From: a virus | Virus record (IMG/VR): IMGVR_UViG_3300004151_000006 | Coordinates: 1-64,000 of that record | Length of the DNA: 64,000 bases | Direction: 5' to 3' (one strand) | In this document: piece after piece, positions 2,720 to 46,202 of the stretch | Layout of the letters: each line of letters starts with the position of its first letter | How positions within the stretch are numbered: position 1 is the stretch's first letter | Translations under genes and position numbers: made by a program | Notes under the pieces: generated by a model | The model's input: the letters and a program-made list of their open reading frames with translations, nothing else | The model's database searches: none | What the model was told of the DNA's origin: nothing

Positions 2720-3315
2720 AATTCAAATGGTCATACTTAATACCATTGGTAGTTGTTGGTTTTGTTCTCTTTGTTTTTAGTATGGTCCTTGATCAGCTAT
2801 ACAGTACCACATCCACTAATCACAAACCCATTAGCTTTCAAGCACCACAAGTACAAGAGTATGGAATCAAGCATGAAGAAGAACCACTCCCACCTATCAA
2901 GTATTTTGGATATCTGAAATCAAGTAAGGTCAATGATCTCAATCATCTTTACTTTGAAGTATTTGATCAAGATAAGCATCTATACAAAATAGTCCAACTC
3001 TATGGTATAAAGGTACCCAATGATTCAAATATTAAAAAAGCTATTGACACTGTCATTGGAGTATATGCAGAGAATCAAGTCATCATTGTGTCTAGGACAG
3101 ATCATCCTGATCAACAGTTTGATATTGTCTCAATCAAGATCATCACACCAAACAATATCCTCATAGATTTGGCTGAGCTCCTCACTACAAAAGGCTCCGT
3201 CGATGTCACTGAGGATACCAAACATCAGATGACACATGCCCTCCTTAATAAAGGAAAGTCCTATGCTCAAGAGCACCATTTGGGCATCTGGGCTAATACT
3301 TCCATATCAAAGTAA
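2716..3315 (+). CDS. membrane-anchored staphylococcal-nuclease (SNase)-fold-like protein
   Basis: ATGA start/stop overlap with upstream gene; N-terminal TM helix; VQLYGIKVPN and YAQEHHLGIWA resemble SNase-family motifs. Confidence 0.6.
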   Translation: MKFKWSYLIPLVVVGFVLFVFSMVLDQLYSTTSTNHKPISFQAPQVQEYGIKHEEEPLPPIKYFGYLKSSKVNDLNHLYFEVFDQDKHLYKIVQLYGIKVPNDSNIKKAIDTVIGVYAENQVIIVSRTDHPDQQFDIVSIKIITPNNILIDLAELLTTKGSVDVTEDTKHQMTHALLNKGKSYAQEHHLGIWANTSISK

Positions 3316-3667
3316 AATCATCATTGCTGGTAGTAGAAGTATCATTGATCCAAATCTAATTTATCCAATCTTAGATGATCATTTTTCATATATAGGTGAA
3401 GTAGTTTGTGGGACAGCTCTTGGTGTAGACACCATTGGTGCTCATTGGGCAATAGATAGACAAGTCAGGATCAGTTGTTTTAAACCTGATTGGCATCCCA
3501 ATGGGCATTATGACAAATCTGCTGGATATAAACGTAATATAGAAATGGGTGAATATGCACATGGACTATTAGCTTTTTGGGATGGTCAATCACGGGGGAC
3601 CAACCACATGATCAATATCATGGATCGGTTGGGTAAACCCTATGTAGTCTATAAACTTGCAGCATGA
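3263..3667 (+). CDS. SLOG-superfamily DUF2493-like protein
   Basis: IIIAGSRS...VVCGTALGVDTIGAHWA...KPDW...AGYKRNIEM...LAFWDGQSRGTNHMI matches the DUF2493 pattern; AGGAAAG precedes ATG 3263 (alternative ATG 3236 has no RBS). Confidence 0.7.
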   Translation: MLKSTIWASGLILPYQSKIIIAGSRSIIDPNLIYPILDDHFSYIGEVVCGTALGVDTIGAHWAIDRQVRISCFKPDWHPNGHYDKSAGYKRNIEMGEYAHGLLAFWDGQSRGTNHMINIMDRLGKPYVVYKLAA

Positions 3668-6708: not shown

Positions 6709-8640
6709 CTAACTGGCATTTCCGGATACACTCTTCATATACACACCTCCAGGCACAATGACCTTATCTGTAGCCATCAGCTTGATGATGAGTTCACCCA
6801 CCCTACTTAAGATTTCATGATAAATCAACACAGGTTGAATCACTGGATACCCATATATCAATACATTATCATCCTCTTCAAGCTCAAGATACTCCAGGTA
6901 CATATCTAAGTCGTTCACGACACCTTCAGGTGCCAGAGCGTTGATATACTCCTGGGGATGCTTCGCTGTATTGGGGACTATAATATCATTTGTGTTGTAT
7001 ATATTTTCATCATATAAAGTCTTAATTACATGATTGATAGCTAACCTGAAATTCTCATGGATAAAGAGCATATATTTCTTATCCACTTCAGACATCACAA
7101 AGTTGTCATTTTCAATCTTTTCTTTAACGATCACAAGTACATCATTCATACTGAGTACACCATTAATAAAGAAGTTATTAGTGATAGATGCCATGGTAGC
7201 GCCAATGACATCTCTTACTACATGGTGTGCAGCTACATTGTCATGTGTATTACCACCAAGCTTTAAAGTGGGAAGATGAATACATGTCATATTTTTCATA
7301 GCTAAAGTAGCAATATCATGGACTGATTGATCTTTAGCATGACTAAGATCTGCTTGTTCAGCACGTAATTTCATATCTTCCAATAAGTCATCATAAAATT
7401 TACATTTACCTGGATGTTTAAAATTTGGATGAATGGTAGCTTTAGTAGCATCGTGTTCAAAGAGTCCATAGAATTCCATGACTGATCCATAGGTACGAAT
7501 CTTATTCACCATGAATGTGTAACTATCATCTAAAGGATTTTGTCTCTCAGTCTGAATATATGGAGTAGTGGATGCAATAGCATTAAGCACTGCAAGATCT
7601 ACTGCATACTGGGTAAATGTTTTATTTTTTGTAAAATACGAAGCTAGTGCAATGGGTTCTTTACGAATGGCATTAACCTCACCAACGGTACGTATAATTT
7701 CAGCTGGGATCTGTGCAGCAGTGAGTATACACAATGATTCATTTTCAGGATAAGCTTTGATATATCCAATCAATTTGCTCGTACAAGTATCACCAGTAGC
7801 CATACCATCGGGAATAGCTAACACTCTTACATTTTCTTTTACCCATTCAGTTTGCATGACTTCATTATAAAGATTGGCAGTTTGAAAATCAATATCTACG
7901 ACAAAATCATAAGGTTCTGTATGAACAGAATAATCAGTTTCATCTTCTACTTTTGAACTAAACCAAGTTTGATGTTCCCAAGCTTCTCTGGGGATACCTT
8001 CAAAGATAGTCTTCATACATTTAGATAAGATCAAATGTCCACCAGAAGAAGACATAGATTGCATAAAAGCAATGACACCAGCCCAATATTCTTCAGATTT
8101 ACCAGGATAAAGACTCATGAGTCTTTCAATAGAATAAGATTCATTATCGATAGTCTCCAACACAATCTTTACAAATTCTTTATAGAGTTTATTTTGATCT
8201 ACTGTAGTGAGTTTGAGTGCAGCGATCTTATCTTTGTTTTGTAATGCATTCTTAAGAAAGATAGCGGCTACTAGCATGGCAGTAGTGGTGCCATCTTTAG
8301 CTCTACGATCCACTTCTCTACCAATATAAGTGATGACATTTTTAAGATATGTTTGAATGATAGATGCAAACTCTACTTTTTCCAATATAGTAATACCATC
8401 TTTAGAGAATGTGGAAGGTGAAGCCAATGCAGCATTACCACTAGCGATTACATTCCGATCTACGATCATAGAAAATTGACTATGTGGACCACAATGTGGT
8501 GTGAGTAATTGATCAATATATTCCAGGGTATCTGTAAAGATCTGTTTGTTTTCTTCAAGTTTCATATCCACAACATTTTGCATATGCAAATGTGTGTTGA
8601 TGACGTTTTTACCAACGTGACCGTTGCCTGGATTGTTCAT
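6709..8640 (-). CDS. GroEL/Hsp60-like chaperonin (643 aa)
   Basis: TPHCGPHSQFSMIV, SKDGITILEKVEF and AKDGTTTAMLVAA align in order with GroEL TLGPKGRNVV, TKDGVSVAREIE and AGDGTTTATVLA. Confidence 0.75.
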   Translation of the reverse strand: MNNPGNGHVGKNVINTHLHMQNVVDMKLEENKQIFTDTLEYIDQLLTPHCGPHSQFSMIVDRNVIASGNAALASPSTFSKDGITILEKVEFASIIQTYLKNVITYIGREVDRRAKDGTTTAMLVAAIFLKNALQNKDKIAALKLTTVDQNKLYKEFVKIVLETIDNESYSIERLMSLYPGKSEEYWAGVIAFMQSMSSSGGHLILSKCMKTIFEGIPREAWEHQTWFSSKVEDETDYSVHTEPYDFVVDIDFQTANLYNEVMQTEWVKENVRVLAIPDGMATGDTCTSKLIGYIKAYPENESLCILTAAQIPAEIIRTVGEVNAIRKEPIALASYFTKNKTFTQYAVDLAVLNAIASTTPYIQTERQNPLDDSYTFMVNKIRTYGSVMEFYGLFEHDATKATIHPNFKHPGKCKFYDDLLEDMKLRAEQADLSHAKDQSVHDIATLAMKNMTCIHLPTLKLGGNTHDNVAAHHVVRDVIGATMASITNNFFINGVLSMNDVLVIVKEKIENDNFVMSEVDKKYMLFIHENFRLAINHVIKTLYDENIYNTNDIIVPNTAKHPQEYINALAPEGVVNDLDMYLEYLELEEDDNVLIYGYPVIQPVLIYHEILSRVGELIIKLMATDKVIVPGGVYMKSVSGNAS

Positions 8641-9109
8641 ATGCTAAACGCTCCCGCGTATTAAATGTGTCTGTGGCATTAGCTGACTTATCCTGTTGTA
8701 TTTGATTTTGGATGTTAGCTATGACTTTTTTACGTGGTTCATCTATCTCAGCATAAACTGATTTCAATATATCATATAAAGCAAAATCCATCTCTAACAC
8801 ATCAGTTACAGATAAACCAGTGAGATTGTGGATATCGGTAGACATAAAGAAACGTAATACATCTTCAAAGATAGGATTACCTATTTCTCGATTATCTTCA
8901 TATTCAATACCTAGAAAGTTTCTACTCGTGATAGGTCTATCTTTATAAAAATTGGGATTAAAGAATTCACTATTGAATTTGGAAATACCCAAACACCGAG
9001 CCTTGCCTGGGTATTTCTTCCAAAATGCTAAAGCCTCTAGATGTGCTTTGGCGTATTCGACTATTTTGTCGTATTTGACTGGTTGGCTGCGGTCAGTCGA
9101 ATAAGACAC
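8609..9109 (-). CDS. hypothetical protein (166 aa) or -1 frame extension of the upstream ORF
   Basis: GTG start at 9109 lies inside the end of 9061..10779; no internal ATG until late; see frameshift finding. Confidence 0.6.
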   Translation of the reverse strand: MSYSTDRSQPVKYDKIVEYAKAHLEALAFWKKYPGKARCLGISKFNSEFFNPNFYKDRPITSRNFLGIEYEDNREIGNPIFEDVLRFFMSTDIHNLTGLSVTDVLEMDFALYDILKSVYAEIDEPRKKVIANIQNQIQQDKSANATDTFNTRERLAYEQSRQRSRW

Positions 9110-18522: not shown

Positions 18523-18530
18523 TGATGTTG

Positions 18531-18562
18531 GGCATACCCTAGCCAAAAGGCTAGGGTATGCC
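18531..18562 (+). terminator. GC-clamped perfect hairpin (GGCATACCCTAGCC AAAA GGCTAGGGTATGCC)
   Basis: 14-bp stem 9 nt after the stop. Confidence 0.55.
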
Positions 18563-31241: not shown

Positions 31242-31271
31242 GGACATGGGAGGCACGTGCCTCCCATGTCC
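31242..31271 (+). terminator. 30-nt perfect palindrome GGACATGGGAGGCAC/GTGCCTCCCATGTCC
   Basis: 10 nt after the operon's last stop. Confidence 0.6.
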
Positions 31272-31413
31272 ATCACTCTTTCATCTATATATTATTTTTT
31301 TGAAGATTTAATAATAGTCTATATTTGACCCATATAACTAAGCACCTTTAAATTTATATTTGATGATTATCTAATGTAAGGGTAGTACCCCAGATAACAG
31401 GGAGGAACAAATC

Positions 31414-39682: not shown

Positions 39683-41122
39683 ATGAGTAAAACTTATTAT
39701 CCTAAGGATATTTTAGATGGTGATATAGAATTTAAAGAAGATGATAAAGTGATGATTCCATTTTGTGAAAATGGTATGACTACATTTTTAACAGCAGAAA
39801 TTTGCAGTGGAGAACAATTTGAAGGTGAAGGATTGTATTTATCATTTGTGGATGATGTTAGTGTTGATTGGGAACGTGATACAGAACTTCATCATAGATT
39901 ATTTTCTTGTAGAAACATCGTACCTAAAGATGGATATGTTCTTTTACCCCAGGGTTCAACTTCTAAAATAAAAGTATCTTATCCAGCAAAAAGCTCTAAT
40001 CATTTGAGTATGTTATTAACACATTTATTATCATCATGCTGTACCTTTGATTACTGTTGCATGAAGAATAAAAAACATCTTATTTTTGATGATCGTGTTA
40101 TTAATGAACATCAACACTGTAGTACATATGTGTTCCATAATTATTATGACAACATTAAAGAAAAACCATATCTCCATCACGAACCAAATGTACTCTCATT
40201 ATTTGGATATGGTAAATATACTACAAAAAAATGGCAATTATATGAATTAATATCTTTAATATCTGGAAAAAGTAAAATTACTAGAGTTTATGAAAATACA
40301 GATAATGTTGATCTAATACGACTTAAATACGATATGGTTATTTCAGATTTAGAATCTGTAAAAAAGTGTGCTTTTTATAGTGATGAAAAACCACGTTGTA
40401 AATTTCAATATGTGGAACACAAAGAACTTATTAACCATATACCACATATTGAATATATAGGCTGGTATTCTCCATTTGAAAATATATTAAATAGAGAAAA
40501 CATGGCCAGTAACAATGATAAAGAATCTAATCATCATATTCCTCTCACTGAAGAATTTGTCACCAGTGGACTACCAGTTAAAAATCCAGCTAATATACCT
40601 GAAGGTGATCTATATACAAGTGTATTTCCAACTGATGTTGAAGAAATCAATTTTGAACGTAAGATCCCAGATGGTATCTTAAACAATACCAAAACAACAC
40701 TGGCCGCTACTGCTATGTATCAAACCCAAACCAAGAAGGAGAAGACCATGGATACCAAGACTGCTCTCATCGATAGCAACAAAGACGCTGCTTTCATCGC
40801 TGCCCAGATCGAAGCCGGCCGTTTGGCCACTGCCATGCTCACCAAGATGGCTACTCCGCACCTGCCGATGATTCTGCAAGGGTATGCACAGCATCCTCTT
40901 GCAGCATTGATCCTTGCCAATATGGCCGTCTTTGGCGTTGAACAGTTTCGGCCTACTGATGAAAAGGCCAAGTTTATTGCTAAGGCTATGCAGATCTCAG
41001 CATATACTGAGCTGTTCAAATCATTCAATGTTGAAGAGATGATCAATACGGTATTTGATGAACTGAGTGATAAGATTAAGTTCCCCACTATGAAAAAGGA
41101 AATTGAAGACATGAAGCTGTAA
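39683..41122 (+). CDS. hypothetical protein (479 aa); AT-rich N-terminal 355 codons joined in frame to a G+C-rich C-terminal 124 codons
   Basis: AAGGAGG upstream of ATG 39683; internal in-frame AAGGAG-N6-ATG at 40748 coincides with the composition shift. Confidence 0.75.
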   Translation: MSKTYYPKDILDGDIEFKEDDKVMIPFCENGMTTFLTAEICSGEQFEGEGLYLSFVDDVSVDWERDTELHHRLFSCRNIVPKDGYVLLPQGSTSKIKVSYPAKSSNHLSMLLTHLLSSCCTFDYCCMKNKKHLIFDDRVINEHQHCSTYVFHNYYDNIKEKPYLHHEPNVLSLFGYGKYTTKKWQLYELISLISGKSKITRVYENTDNVDLIRLKYDMVISDLESVKKCAFYSDEKPRCKFQYVEHKELINHIPHIEYIGWYSPFENILNRENMASNNDKESNHHIPLTEEFVTSGLPVKNPANIPEGDLYTSVFPTDVEEINFERKIPDGILNNTKTTLAATAMYQTQTKKEKTMDTKTALIDSNKDAAFIAAQIEAGRLATAMLTKMATPHLPMILQGYAQHPLAALILANMAVFGVEQFRPTDEKAKFIAKAMQISAYTELFKSFNVEEMINTVFDELSDKIKFPTMKKEIEDMKL

Positions 41123-41245: not shown

Positions 41246-41650
41246 ATGTACAAAGTGGTGGACTCCAATGGCATTGTGCTTGATTTTGATCTTCCGAACA
41301 AAAAGGAAGCTAAGATTGCCCGTGACAAGTATGATCAGGGCACTGCATTTCTTCAGCGTACGGATAAGCATCCCAGAGGGGCATCGCATCTGCCGCAACC
41401 CAAGAAACCCAAGTTTGGAAAACCCGAAGACCTGGTCACCGACACCCAGACCGAGCCGGTCAAACTCACTGATGAGGAGATCGAGGCTGAGGCCGAACGC
41501 CTTGAAGGCTTCGGCTACAAGACAGCCAATGGCACCGATGGTGTCCCTATCTGGAAACAAAGGGTGGAACGCAAAGTCGATGCTCCTTCGGCTTCGGCTC
41601 AGTTCCAGCCCCGGGTCATTGACTTCAGCGAAGACCCCACTTTCGCGTAG
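41246..41650 (+). CDS. hypothetical protein (134 aa), G+C-rich island gene
   Basis: AAGGAG 9 nt upstream of ATG 41246; the 41162 start runs through hairpin 41157-41198. Confidence 0.65.
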   Translation: MYKVVDSNGIVLDFDLPNKKEAKIARDKYDQGTAFLQRTDKHPRGASHLPQPKKPKFGKPEDLVTDTQTEPVKLTDEEIEAEAERLEGFGYKTANGTDGVPIWKQRVERKVDAPSASAQFQPRVIDFSEDPTFA

Positions 41651-41653
41651 TCT

Positions 41654-41679
41654 AAGATCAGATCCTAAGATCTGATCTT
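41654..41679 (+). terminator. hairpin AAGATCAGATC CTAA GATCTGATCTT followed by a T-rich tract
   Basis: 11-bp perfect stem 4 nt after the stop. Confidence 0.55.
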
Positions 41680-41722
41680 CTTCTTTAATCAGTGGGCACT
41701 TTAGACTAGAGGTAATTCTCAC

Positions 41723-42195
41723 TGCTCACCAATTGGGATCGTCAAATCGGAGATAATGACGACCTAGGCCAAATTGGCTGAATATGGGAGGCAAATATGC
41801 ATTGGCCGTAACTATCATGTCCGGCTCCTTTGGGTCGTGCCTATCTGGGACTCCCGGAAAGGTCATCGGCTACACAGTCTAAGGTAATATCAAAATATAT
41901 CCGGTGAGTAGCTGTGCGGTAATGACAGCGGCAGTCGTTGACATCGACGATATGATGTGGGTTTAGAGGAACCCTCGGGAATGGGTGGTGTGAACACCCT
42001 ACCACACCCTATTCAAACAATAGATCGAGACTGTGACTAAACCACGTACTGAATCAAAGGTGATGTGCACCACCAGAGAGAGACTCGTGGTAACCGGATG
42101 TGTCTTAGGTATCGTTTGTTTATGCACCTCTAACTTGCATTACAGGGCTGGGGCCGGATCATCAGATTTGTGCCTCAGCCCATCTTAATTTATGT
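41723..42195 (+). ncRNA. candidate structured RNA / long tRNA-operon leader (identity unknown)
   Basis: About 470 nt with no credible ORF on either strand; G+C-elevated; many local helices including a 10-bp stem at 42145-42181; strand inferred from the adjacent tRNAs. Confidence 0.3.
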
Positions 42196-42271
42196 TGGGG
42201 TATAGCTCAGTTGGTAGAGCCATCGGCTCATAACCGAAAGGTCACGTGTTCGACCCACGTTGCCCCAACCA
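42196..42271 (+). tRNA. tRNA with CAT anticodon (Met, or Ile2 if lysidine-modified), CCA encoded
   Basis: Hand-folded cloverleaf: acceptor TGGGGTA/TGCCCCA, D arm GCTC-AGTTGGTA-GAGC, anticodon loop CTCATAA, T arm ACGTG-TTCGACC-CACGT; 76 nt. Confidence 0.9.
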
Positions 42272-42275
42272 TTGT

Positions 42276-42352
42276 GGGACTGTAGCTCAGTTGGATAGAG
42301 CATCTGCCTTCTAAGCAGACAGTCAGAGGTTCGACTCCTCTCAGTCTCACCA
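42276..42352 (+). tRNA. tRNA-Arg (TCT anticodon, reads AGA), CCA encoded
   Basis: Acceptor GGGACTG/CAGTCTC, D arm GCTC-AGTTGGATA-GAGC, anticodon stem TCTGC/GCAGA with loop CTTCTAA, T arm AGAGG-TTCGACT-CCTCT; 77 nt. Confidence 0.9.
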
Positions 42353-42363
42353 CCAAAATTTTC

Positions 42364-42435
42364 AAGGACATAGCTTAGTCGTAGAGCCCAGGTCTCACCA
42401 GCCTGGAGAGTTTGGTTCAATTCCAAATGTCCTTG
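42364..42435 (+). tRNA. atypical tRNA-like gene; anticodon CAC (Val) if folded canonically
   Basis: Acceptor AAGGACA/TGTCCTT (A1-U72), D arm GCTT-AGTCGTA-GAGC (no GG), anticodon stem CAGGT/GCCTG with loop CTCACCA (C at position 37), T arm TTTGG-TTCAATT-CCAAA, G73, no encoded CCA. Confidence 0.55.
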
Positions 42436-42651
42436 GCCAAGATTATCTCTCTTATATCAGGAGAGTTGTGTAAGACATTCTGTGCATCACCATGAAGGGA
42501 CATGTGGCTGTACAGGGACATAACTTCATCGTACCTCAATATCCATCAAAAGTGATACCCATGCGATGATGCGGGAGGAACACGTAAAACACCCTCCATC
42601 CAAATACCTCGACAGTTGACAGGTGGTAACCGCTGAACAATGTCCCATAAA
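42436..42651 (+). ncRNA. candidate structured trailer of the tRNA transcription unit
   Basis: About 215 nt without a credible ORF, lying between the last tRNA and the terminator; local helices such as CTCTC/GAGAG 42447-42465 and GGAGG/CCTCC near 42565-42597. Confidence 0.25.
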
Positions 42652-42705
42652 GGAGAGAGTGCATATAAATGCACTCTCTCCCGCCACCACACTTTATTTT
42701 TTTTT
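42652..42705 (+). terminator. rho-independent-type terminator (13-bp perfect stem GGAGAGAGTGCAT ATAA ATGCACTCTCTCC, then T-run)
   Basis: Stem 42652-42681; TTTATTTTTTTTT at 42693-42705. Confidence 0.7.
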
Positions 42706-42729
42706 GTAAATATTATGAAGGAGTAAATT

Positions 42730-43854: not shown

Positions 43855-43885
43855 CAGTGTAGTGGGGTCTATCCCCACTACACTG
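43855..43885 (+). terminator. GC-clamped hairpin (CAGTGTAGTGGGG / CCCCACTACACTG)
   Basis: 13-bp perfect stem 11 nt after the stop. Confidence 0.55.
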
Positions 43886-43915
43886 GTGATGTATCTTTCT
43901 AGTAGATTTTTTCTT

Positions 43916-43940: not shown

Positions 43941-44630
43941 ATGACCCCAAAGAGAAAAAAAGTCCAGGACTTTATTCTTTCACATCTAAGGATACTCGAT
44001 CCTGAAGGAGACAATGTCTCTAGATATGAAAAGTTTTTCAGTGATCTATCTGATGTGCAGTTTGATGAATATATGAAAGACCTTAAGGATAATAAAGATC
44101 AGATCTATATCTTTGTACCACCACTCAAGACTGTACTCAAGATGGAAAATATCTTAAAGACTAATGATGCTTTGGGTATGGATCTCTTTGAAAGAGTGTG
44201 GCTCACAGATACTGCTACTGGTAATGTATATCTTACTCCACAAAAATATTTGATCTTAGAATTACCCATTAGGAGATTTAGACAATATCTTCAACATAAG
44301 TTATCAGTACCTGATGATGATAAGCGAATCGATCTACTCTCAGGTCAGGTCACTAAACCAGATAAAGCTGCTTCTTTATCTTACGTAGAAATGCAAACAT
44401 TAGCTGCTAGAGATCTTCACAACACTATTGCTGAATTAGCTAAATATCGTGGTGGTGATATCCATGCATATGCTGAATTTCGAAGACAGTTGGAAGAAAA
44501 TGGTACTGCTAATGTATCACTTGACAGTACTGGAAGTATGGCTCGAAGTACAGTCATATTAGATGTATTTTTATCTGGTATGCATATTGATTCCAATATT
44601 GTCACTAAAGAATCTGGAGATGTTGTATGA
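43941..44630 (+). CDS. hypothetical protein (229 aa)
   Basis: AAGGAG upstream; ATGA overlap with the next gene. Confidence 0.8.
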   Translation: MTPKRKKVQDFILSHLRILDPEGDNVSRYEKFFSDLSDVQFDEYMKDLKDNKDQIYIFVPPLKTVLKMENILKTNDALGMDLFERVWLTDTATGNVYLTPQKYLILELPIRRFRQYLQHKLSVPDDDKRIDLLSGQVTKPDKAASLSYVEMQTLAARDLHNTIAELAKYRGGDIHAYAEFRRQLEENGTANVSLDSTGSMARSTVILDVFLSGMHIDSNIVTKESGDVV

Positions 44631-46169: not shown

Positions 46170-46202
46170 ATGGTGCAGGGTCCTTTAAGGACCCTGCACC
46201 AT
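46170..46202 (+). terminator. GC-clamped hairpin (ATGGTGCAGGGTCCTT / AAGGACCCTGCACCAT)
   Basis: About 15-bp perfect stem 8 nt after the stop. Confidence 0.55.

Follow-up and report, generated by a model that had tools for sequence, protein, structure and literature searches.

Phage tRNA islands are already known to attract elaborate RNAs, among them GOLLD, ROOL and the RNAC and RNAD of phage T4. ROOL is about 580 nucleotides (nt) long, with six multistem junctions as well as three pseudoknots, and GOLLD and ROOL RNAs range from 580 to more than 800 nt. In GOLLD, a conserved 3' region is combined with a variable, less conserved 5' region, and tRNAs are sometimes held in a linker (PMC12286853); both GOLLD and ROOL are found near phage tRNA islands (PMC12286853, PMC5737381). 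In T4, RNAC and RNAD (species 1 and 2) are small stable RNAs of unknown function from the tRNA region (PMC3014915, PMC9697503), and the tRNA cluster is itself a target of the homing endonuclease SegB (PMC3014915). In 201phi2-1 (and PAK_P3), a small RNA (sRNA) immediately upstream of a tRNA was found by ONT-cappable-seq (PMC11512511). Here we describe an interval around three tRNA genes of an uncultured giant phage, situated at 41651-42729 of a 64,000-nt stretch of DNA (positions 1 to 64,000 of IMG/VR record IMGVR_UViG_3300004151_000006, called the window below). It contains two conserved RNA blocks, a 5' element ahead of the tRNA genes and a 3' element behind them, and this pair would add an independent case to those listed above.

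The locus resembles GOLLD and ROOL in its context, these being structured noncoding RNAs (ncRNAs) that phages and prophages encode within or next to tRNA islands, and here three tRNA genes lie between the two blocks. Unlike GOLLD and ROOL, the window gives no match to either model, its conserved RNA amounts to about 460 nt in two blocks, no pairing between the blocks was detected, and terminator-like hairpins lie between them. As with RNAC and RNAD of T4, the blocks abut tRNA genes (tRNA-Met and tRNA-Val) on the + strand, and HNH genes are present in the equivalent region of two other contigs (L062 and L004). However, the RNAs of the window are larger (about 200 and 270 nt), belong to a phiKZ-like rather than a T4-like phage and are known here from sequence alone. 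The sRNA of 201phi2-1, also a phiKZ-like giant phage, is a short noncoding transcript that adjoins a tRNA on the 5' side, as the 5' element would, but it was defined by transcript ends, whereas the elements in the window are defined by conserved structure.

We favor, with a probability of about 0.55, the reading that the interval is a variable tRNA/ncRNA island containing at least two previously undescribed structured RNA modules, which are released as stable RNAs and frame an exchangeable tRNA cassette.

Two RNA elements are conserved and covary in related phages

Related public assemblies were reached via the neighboring proteins, and a homologous arrangement was found in two contigs, both from uncultured phages: L003, in which the RNA polymerase subunit is 83% identical to that of the window, and L062. 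The order common to the window, L003 and L062 is gene B, the 5' element, a variable middle, tRNA-Val, the 3' element, a U-run and a gene encoding a protein of 105 amino acids (aa).

The 5' element (41901-42097, + strand, about 197 nt) aligns with L003 824-1036 and L062 2006-2213 at 63-66% nucleotide identity. It begins about 10 nt past the gene B stop in L003 and L062 and, in L003, stops 10 nt before tRNA-Met. The proposed structure consists of a closing stem, P1 (41901-41905/42093-42097), a hairpin, P2 (41911-41915/41925-41929), a long-range helix, P3 (41931-41936/42029-42034, extended by 41943-41945/42023-42025), and two internal hairpins (41967-41975 and 41983-41999). Standard pairs are formed in 99% of the alignment cells, and 9 of the 35 pairs have changed on both sides, a number reached by none of 500 shuffles; when the partners were slid by 1-3 columns, only 0-1 such changes were left. 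One 3-bp segment reads AUC/GAU, CUU/AAG and CUC/GAG across the three genomes. Pairing of GGUUUAG (41960-41966) with CUAAACC (42037-42043) would give a pseudoknot, which stays a candidate because it is invariant except for one G-C to G-U change. Every reading frame of the element has at least two stops in all three genomes.

The 3' element (42440-42705, + strand, about 266 nt) begins at the base right after the tRNA-Val CCA in all three genomes and aligns with L003 1611-1930 and L062 3313-3618 at 67% identity. RNAalifold gives it six helical regions, among them H1 (42447-42453/42459-42465), H2 (42480-42515), H4 (GGGAGG at 42573-42578 with CCUCC at 42593-42597) and a conserved terminal hairpin of 13 bp (42652-42681); H3 occupies approximately 42525-42571. 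On the 3' side of the terminal hairpin follow a conserved CCACCA (42684-42689) and, 11-12 nt past the hairpin, a conserved T-run, TTTATTTTTTTTT (42693-42705). Here 94% of the cells are paired and 15 of the 65 pairs have changed on both sides; 0 of 500 shuffles got there, and the slid controls gave 0-3. No ORF (open reading frame) is common to the three genomes.

Invariant G-U pairs in P3 and H2 would be C-A on the opposite strand, and the + strand is therefore the folded one. The flanking protein genes have 60-69% DNA identity between the window and L003 or L062 (60-62% for gene B, 68-69% for the 105-aa gene), so that the blocks are about as conserved as coding sequence. Judged by this conservation, the covariation, the strand and their noncoding nature, both blocks are structured RNAs. 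Single-sequence folding contributes less: the gain over shuffles is moderate, with z scores of -2.4 for the 5' flank and -3.9 for the 3' flank (-2.3 for 41690-41892 and -2.1 for 41899-42104), and the strong evidence is comparative.

A first-pass annotation of the window, made by reading the sequence without database searches, had suspected a large structured RNA beyond the tRNAs in this place, and the two blocks, being conserved with covarying helices in both L003 and L062, bear it out on that point. The local helices that it listed fared unevenly. Covariation is seen in GGTG/CACC, CTCTC/GAGAG and the 13-bp hairpin, whereas GCTGT/ACAGC is invariant and ACCAC/GTGGT is only partly kept; GGGTT/AACCC is not conserved, and the 10-bp stem at 42145-42181 is present in the window only. 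Its three-tRNA cluster was confirmed by ARAGORN and the Rfam tRNA model, which concur (50-71 bits). As for coding content, the interval measures 1,080 nt from the upstream stop (41650) to the next start (42730), and the longest ORFs in 41651-42729 are of 25-78 aa, all of them overlapping the tRNAs or the hairpins and none retained in L003 or L062. The description of the interval as free of credible long ORFs is thus correct, but it overlooks a recurring four-codon mini-ORF preceded by a Shine-Dalgarno (SD) sequence at 41786-41811 (see below). The interval is also the widest gap in the window when ORFs of at least 100 aa are counted, although other gaps of 250-520 nt occur where gaps of tens of nt had been described. 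Likewise, its G+C content is elevated as stated (0.46-0.50, versus approximately 0.27-0.39 in most of the neighborhood), but the rise already begins at approximately 40700, within two upstream protein genes, and is not peculiar to the ORF-free stretch.

The elements match no described RNA family

With Rfam release 15 at the gathering threshold, the 64-kb window had only tRNAs in the interval, and a permissive search (E value of ≤10) of 1,401 nt also returned only tRNAs. A permissive search of 20.7 kb missed a group I intron of L004 that a 391-nt search found, above the gathering threshold. Because the long search had lost this genuine intron, the window was searched again piece by piece; at the permissive threshold, pieces of 286, 256 and 226 nt, together with 1131 nt of L003, gave only tRNAs and noise. 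Rfam negatives on long inputs may be filter losses, and the whole-window scan may have missed RNAs elsewhere in the window.

No covariance-model match was obtained for GOLLD (RF01998), at the gathering level or at an E value of ≤10 in the pieces, or for ROOL (RF03087), in the window or the pieces. The group I intron model (RF00028) found no match in the window pieces, with the L004 intron as a positive control at 71.9 bits, and the blocks interrupt no gene; a group I-like "R" motif in the 5' element (GAGACU...GACUAAA) has the wrong strand order and no model match. The T-box model (RF00230) gave no match at an E value of ≤10 in a 286-nt search of the 3' element. With regard to tmRNA and RNase P RNA, ARAGORN gave the three tRNAs only, and there was no Rfam match. 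Thus, for the identities considered in the first-pass annotation (GOLLD, ROOL, HEARO, raiA, tmRNA, RNase P and group I/II introns), Rfam searches at an E value of ≤10 on 226-1401 nt were negative throughout, and it is its alternative of an undescribed RNA that agrees with the result, since both blocks match no described family. The interval RNA is probably a new module and not GOLLD or ROOL.

No further copy of the elements came to light. A covariance model of the 5' element (R1) recovered only the three known copies in approximately 600 kb of sequence, and nhmmer found no additional copy in approximately 600 kb. Two scans of genome collections returned no further copy, and pattern scans of viral contigs gave chance matches in coding DNA. 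A scan of a single metagenome with a 3'-element motif that was one mismatch too strict gave 48 unrelated loci, mostly of one AT-rich repeat family. blastn and megablast against 50,697 phage records produced matches within the tRNAs only, so that no cultured phage among them shares other DNA of the interval. With three known copies, all from uncultured phages, each element is a candidate motif. As a separate observation, loci L015-L061 (JGI samples Ga0214542-45, Ga0209389, Ga0209589 and Ga0099822/23) carry an AT-rich repeat family around AAAAACCATGAAGTGACATGTGG[C/T]AGTCAC that is unrelated to the window and is present in several copies on some contigs.

The elements frame exchangeable tRNA genes

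The three tRNA genes of the window all lie on the + strand and encode the CCA end: tRNA-Met (CAT) at 42196-42271, tRNA-Arg (TCT) at 42276-42352 and tRNA-Val (CAC) at 42363-42439, found by ARAGORN and scored by Rfam at 61.4, 71.2 and 50.2 bits, respectively. Compared with their counterparts in L003 and L062, tRNA-Met and tRNA-Val are only 47-52% identical (49-52% for tRNA-Met and 47-49% for tRNA-Val), whereas L003 and L062 share 96-97% identity with one another in these tRNAs. The anticodon of tRNA-Val is CAC in the window versus TAC in L003 and L062. tRNA-Arg is absent from L003 and L062, where its place is taken by a different RNA segment of approximately 170-240 nt that has a long hairpin and U-rich tail at its end. 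L003 additionally has a MazE-family gene between the blocks. In L062, a free-standing HNH_3 endonuclease gene cuts off a 5' fragment (approximately 2268-2300; region 2268-2903) of a window-type tRNA-Met, which suggests homing-endonuclease-driven turnover of the tRNA cassette. Since the tRNAs are nonorthologous and the remaining cargo differs, the blocks frame an exchangeable cassette. This architecture of frame and cargo makes the link between the RNAs and the tRNAs testable by cargo swap or deletion.

In the more distant relatives L010 and L012 the flanking genes are kept and the island is absent, and L004-L006 have other contents at the island position; the interval is therefore an accessory, hypervariable region. 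In L004 (GCA_043955495.1, JBINOJ010000077.1; also in L005), the anticodon loop of a tRNA-Leu(TAA) at 1470-1803 is split by a 247-nt group I intron, which was found by ARAGORN with introns allowed and by Rfam (Intron_gpI, 71.9 bits, E value of 1.7e-18) and adjoins an HNH_3 endonuclease gene.

Such plasticity could also mean that the interval is nonfunctional debris, made up of decayed genes, tRNA pseudogenes, intron remnants or scars of homing-endonuclease recombination. The HNH gene and truncated tRNA of L062, the intron in the tRNA-Leu of L004 and the varying gene content speak for this, as do the approximately 220 nt at 41680-41900 and the spacer at 42105-42195, which are specific to the window. 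We give this explanation very little credence, the least of those considered: the blocks retain 63-67% identity although the intervening tRNAs were replaced, substitutions cluster in compensatory pairs, and no tRNA or intron model matches the blocks even weakly. That the blocks persisted while their contents were exchanged argues against debris and brings to mind the turnover that homing endonucleases drive in the tRNA region of T4 (PMC3014915).

It was also observed that, in three independent assemblies of the same phage, the contigs end within the tRNA/RNA interval (L001 at approximately 42291, L064 and L065 at approximately 42548), consistent with strain-level heterogeneity or with assembly difficulty in a hypervariable region.

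One RNA or several

The best inter-block helix retained in the three genomes has 6 bp with one compensatory change and is equaled by 25% of column shuffles. Hairpins resembling terminators were found within the interval. An 11-bp hairpin with a weak U tail (41654-41679, + strand), which the first-pass annotation had taken for a terminator and which the terminator scan also finds, lies directly after the gene B stop; it is specific to the window, being absent from L003 and L062. A G+C-rich hairpin of 10 bp with a U-rich tail (42145-42181, + strand), identified from the sequence and the minimum free energy (MFE) fold, lies 14 nt upstream of tRNA-Met, has no counterpart in L003 or L062 and is a possible internal terminator or processing signal. 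There is no computed support for a single RNA of about 1 kb, given that pairing between the blocks was not found and that a terminator-like hairpin stands between them in the relatives. The earlier proposal of one transcription unit of about 1 kb that yields only RNA was therefore not upheld: inter-block pairing is not significant, terminator-like hairpins and, in the relatives, a protein gene separate the blocks, and a mini-ORF is present in 41680-41900.

These results bear directly on the idea that the blocks are two domains of one ornate RNA of the GOLLD/ROOL kind, a transcript of approximately 0.8 kb with the tRNAs in a flexible linker, which might, for instance, present the tRNAs as a multimeric scaffold or cage. 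Conserved flanking domains around a variable, tRNA-bearing middle that was swapped while the flanks persisted are what this idea leads one to expect, and they recall the conserved and less conserved regions, the linker tRNAs and the tRNA-island location described for GOLLD. We nevertheless consider it quite unlikely, as GOLLD and ROOL gave no match even in the small searches, the 6-bp candidate is no better than a quarter of the shuffles, and in L003 and L062 the long hairpin with its U-rich tail lies between the blocks together with the MazE gene (L003) or the HNH gene (L062). In the window, moreover, the hairpin at 42145-42181 parts the 5' element from the tRNAs, and the conserved RNA reaches only about 460 nt in total.

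Proposed release of the elements and a possible switch in the 3' element

Under the reading that two RNA modules frame the tRNA cassette and are released as stable RNAs, the modules would be transcribed on the + strand together with the tRNAs. Cotranscription is suggested by the shared orientation, by the G-U pairs that are valid only on the + strand and by the direct abutment to tRNA ends. An RNase P cut at the 5' end of tRNA-Met would then set free the gene B mRNA with the 5' element, and the 3' element would be set free where RNase Z or RNase E cuts behind the tRNA-Val CCA. This would yield compact, stable RNAs shielded by the closing stem and the terminal hairpin, and the upstream, window-specific segment would contribute a translated four-codon minigene, MHWP. 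The option of a long processed tRNA leader and trailer, raised in the first-pass annotation, comes nearest to this model; the structured leader and trailer are there, and the processing we infer.

Several points weigh against this reading. The covariation set comprises three sequences of two lineages, with L003 and L062 being 78-82% identical to each other in the elements, so that few independent events underlie the covariation, and the sequences used to score it had also served to derive the structures. The single-sequence folding scores are modest (z of -2 to -3.9). Promoters, processing sites and RNA stability are inferred from sequence features. The terminator-like hairpins inside the interval (41654-41679 and 42145-42181, and after the middle RNA in L003 and L062) argue for several transcripts, in which case the 5' element may not be made together with the tRNAs. 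Finally, the location of the 3' element, 25 nt ahead of the next gene, also fits a cis-regulatory leader.

The main rival takes up this last point. In all three genomes, 25 nt separate the end of the U-run from the start of the 105-aa gene, and the operon that begins there continues with a gene for an SWM-repeat protein and the phage RNA polymerase subunits. The 3' element could accordingly be a riboswitch-like or attenuator leader whose terminal hairpin and U-run conditionally stop transcription before this operon, while the 5' element would be, for the gene B mRNA, a structured 3' untranslated region or a stabilizer, or else would serve the tRNAs as a leader. ORF-free RNA invariably comes after gene B, which is in keeping with the second part of this proposal. 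For the first part, an alternative pairing was found in all three genomes that can join the 5' strand of H1 (about 42446-42453) to the terminal hairpin's 5' strand (42652-42656). The two alternatives for H1 follow the same substitutions (UCUCU/GGAGA, UCCCG/UGGGA and UUCCA/UGGGA), with two covarying positions, as a P1/terminator switch predicts. Among gapless helices of at least 5 bp with at least two covarying pairs, 2 were observed versus 0.13 expected (P of approximately 0.015, a statistic based on three sequences, with one strand in common with H1).

Other features of the 3' element fit regulation less well. The first-pass annotation had read the 13-bp hairpin and T-run as a downstream terminator; both are indeed present, but the terminator scan makes no call at 42652-42705, since the T-run sits 11-12 nt past the hairpin. 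The distance between hairpin and U-run varies from 9 to 21 nt across the genomes, a spacing that intrinsic terminators do not usually have. Hairpin and U-run could be brought together by an outer GGUGG/CCACC stem, which shows no variation. No known riboswitch or T-box model matches, and the T-box-like GGUGGUAACCGC (42622-42633) upstream of the terminal hairpin is not conserved in L003 or L062. Other relatives use a homologue of the 105-aa gene without the leader, and in L004-L006 it directly follows another gene. We keep the attenuator as the main rival, unlikely on present evidence, because that evidence is thin and relatives without the element have homologous genes. A resemblance to a tRNA 3' end was also considered, as the 13-bp hairpin is followed by ...CCACCA, but the tail has 8 nt versus 4 nt in a tRNA minihelix.

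In L004, at 2811-3335, tRNA-Met is followed by an ORF-free trailer of approximately 520 nt that is closed by a long-range stem, CCACCTCAGC...GCGGTGTCGAGGTGG. The trailer carries the same TTATTTTTTTTT run as the 3' element of the window and otherwise has no alignable similarity to it.

A four-codon mini-ORF recurs in the RNA regions

The first part of the interval differs from the two elements in being specific to the window. The approximately 220 nt at 41680-41900 lack a counterpart in both L003 and L062 and match nothing in Rfam. They include D0 (41698-41884, + strand), an ORF-free segment that is predicted by its MFE fold to close on itself (41698-41707 with 41875-41884; z of -2.3) and as a whole was found in no locus. 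Within it, on the + strand, lies the mini-ORF MHWP (41786-41811), with the SD sequence GGGAGG at 41786-41791, a 5-nt spacer and ATG CAT TGG CCG TAA at 41797-41811. The pattern of an SD sequence, ATGCAY, two more codons and a stop has six copies across the window and the RNA regions of relatives, each with a GGAG-type SD sequence: besides the copy in the window, MHPP occurs twice in L004 (1039-1053 and 1154-1168), MHWK once in L067 (3305-3319), and MHWH and MHWP in L068 (836-850 and 1005-1019). The copies differ synonymously (CAT/CAC, CCG CCG versus CCA CCC, TAA/TAG), and their flanks are not alignable. SD-preceded ORFs of at most eight codons have a density of 2.3 per kb in the RNA regions versus 0.13-0.24 per kb in the rest of the window, an enrichment of about tenfold, and nearly all are of exactly four codons. 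The mini-ORF is probably translated, to judge from its SD sequence and its recurrence, so that the earlier description of the interval as yielding RNA alone is probably not quite correct.

When IMG/VR was scanned for the MHWP version, 8 matches were obtained, a number compatible with chance, none of them with gene B nearby; the corresponding scan for MHPP, with 55 matches, was too unspecific. Among the IMG/VR matches only one, L069, looks convincing. At 8636-8840 of this 375-kb giant-phage contig, three SD-preceded four-codon ORFs (MHWP, MPFL and MPPT) are arrayed in a long ORF-free stretch, and the same sequence of approximately 27 nt is repeated after two of the three.

The bar minigenes of phage lambda have two codons and act through peptidyl-tRNA drop-off. 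Like them, MHWP consists of an SD sequence and, behind it, an ORF only a few codons long, within a noncoding region of a phage; unlike them, it has four codons and a conserved Met-His-(Trp/Pro)-x pattern. The nearest analogies would be the bar minigenes and stalling leader peptides. The recurring mini-ORFs hint at an unstudied way in which giant phages engage ribosomes or tRNA pools.

Should such micropeptides or minigenes, and not RNA, be the main products of the interval, the recurrence of the SD-preceded ORF with synonymous differences and the three-member array in L069 would be readily explained. This is very improbable, however, since the mini-ORF makes up 15 nt of approximately 830 non-tRNA nt, L003 and L062 have no mini-ORF, and within the 5' and 3' elements no SD-preceded ORF is common to the three genomes. 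A more ambitious synthesis would make the blocks two domains of a third "tRNA-island" family of ornate RNAs, GOLLD-like, with an exchangeable-tRNA linker, a conditional terminator before the RNA polymerase operon and four-codon minigenes acting on the translation apparatus; we regard it as speculative and, like the single GOLLD/ROOL-like transcript, quite unlikely.

The phage and the neighboring genes

The phage of the window is an uncultured giant phage of the phiKZ type, with split beta subunits of a multisubunit RNA polymerase, a topoisomerase II and a DNA polymerase. Its RNA polymerase subunit at 43941-44630 has at most 41% identity to those of cultured Xanthomonas, Erwinia and Pseudomonas jumbo phages.

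Gene B (41246-41650, + strand) encodes 134 aa from a conserved start, MYKVVDSNG. Homologues were found only in L003, L062, L067 and L068, each with ORF-free RNA or a tRNA directly downstream; L067 and L068, which were added by a full HMMER search for gene B, are without the 5' element. A profile scan with gene B yielded no further homologous locus, and the protein belongs to no Pfam or PHROG family. Its AlphaFold model is weak (predicted local distance difference test score, pLDDT, of 65), and a structure search with it found no match.

Upstream of gene B, a 479-aa ORF (39683-41122) changes in composition from AT-rich (first 355 codons) to G+C-rich (last 124). Its end matches positions 219-321 of the 336 positions of Pfam DUF7566, and an in-frame AAGGAG-ATG at 40748 precedes this part; the ORF could be a mosaic or fused gene or have an internal start. 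DUF7566 is also encoded upstream of gene B in L067.

An AT-rich ATATATTAC-like motif taken from upstream of genes showed no enrichment in the window, and no promoter was placed inside the interval with it. In many intergenic regions of the window, however, a hairpin is followed by a TATATATTAT-like AT-rich motif, as at 18523-18560, 31243-31272, 43855-43886 and 46172-46200, where long perfect hairpins (12-15 bp) precede the motif by approximately 20-40 nt. This is probably the terminator-promoter arrangement of the phage.

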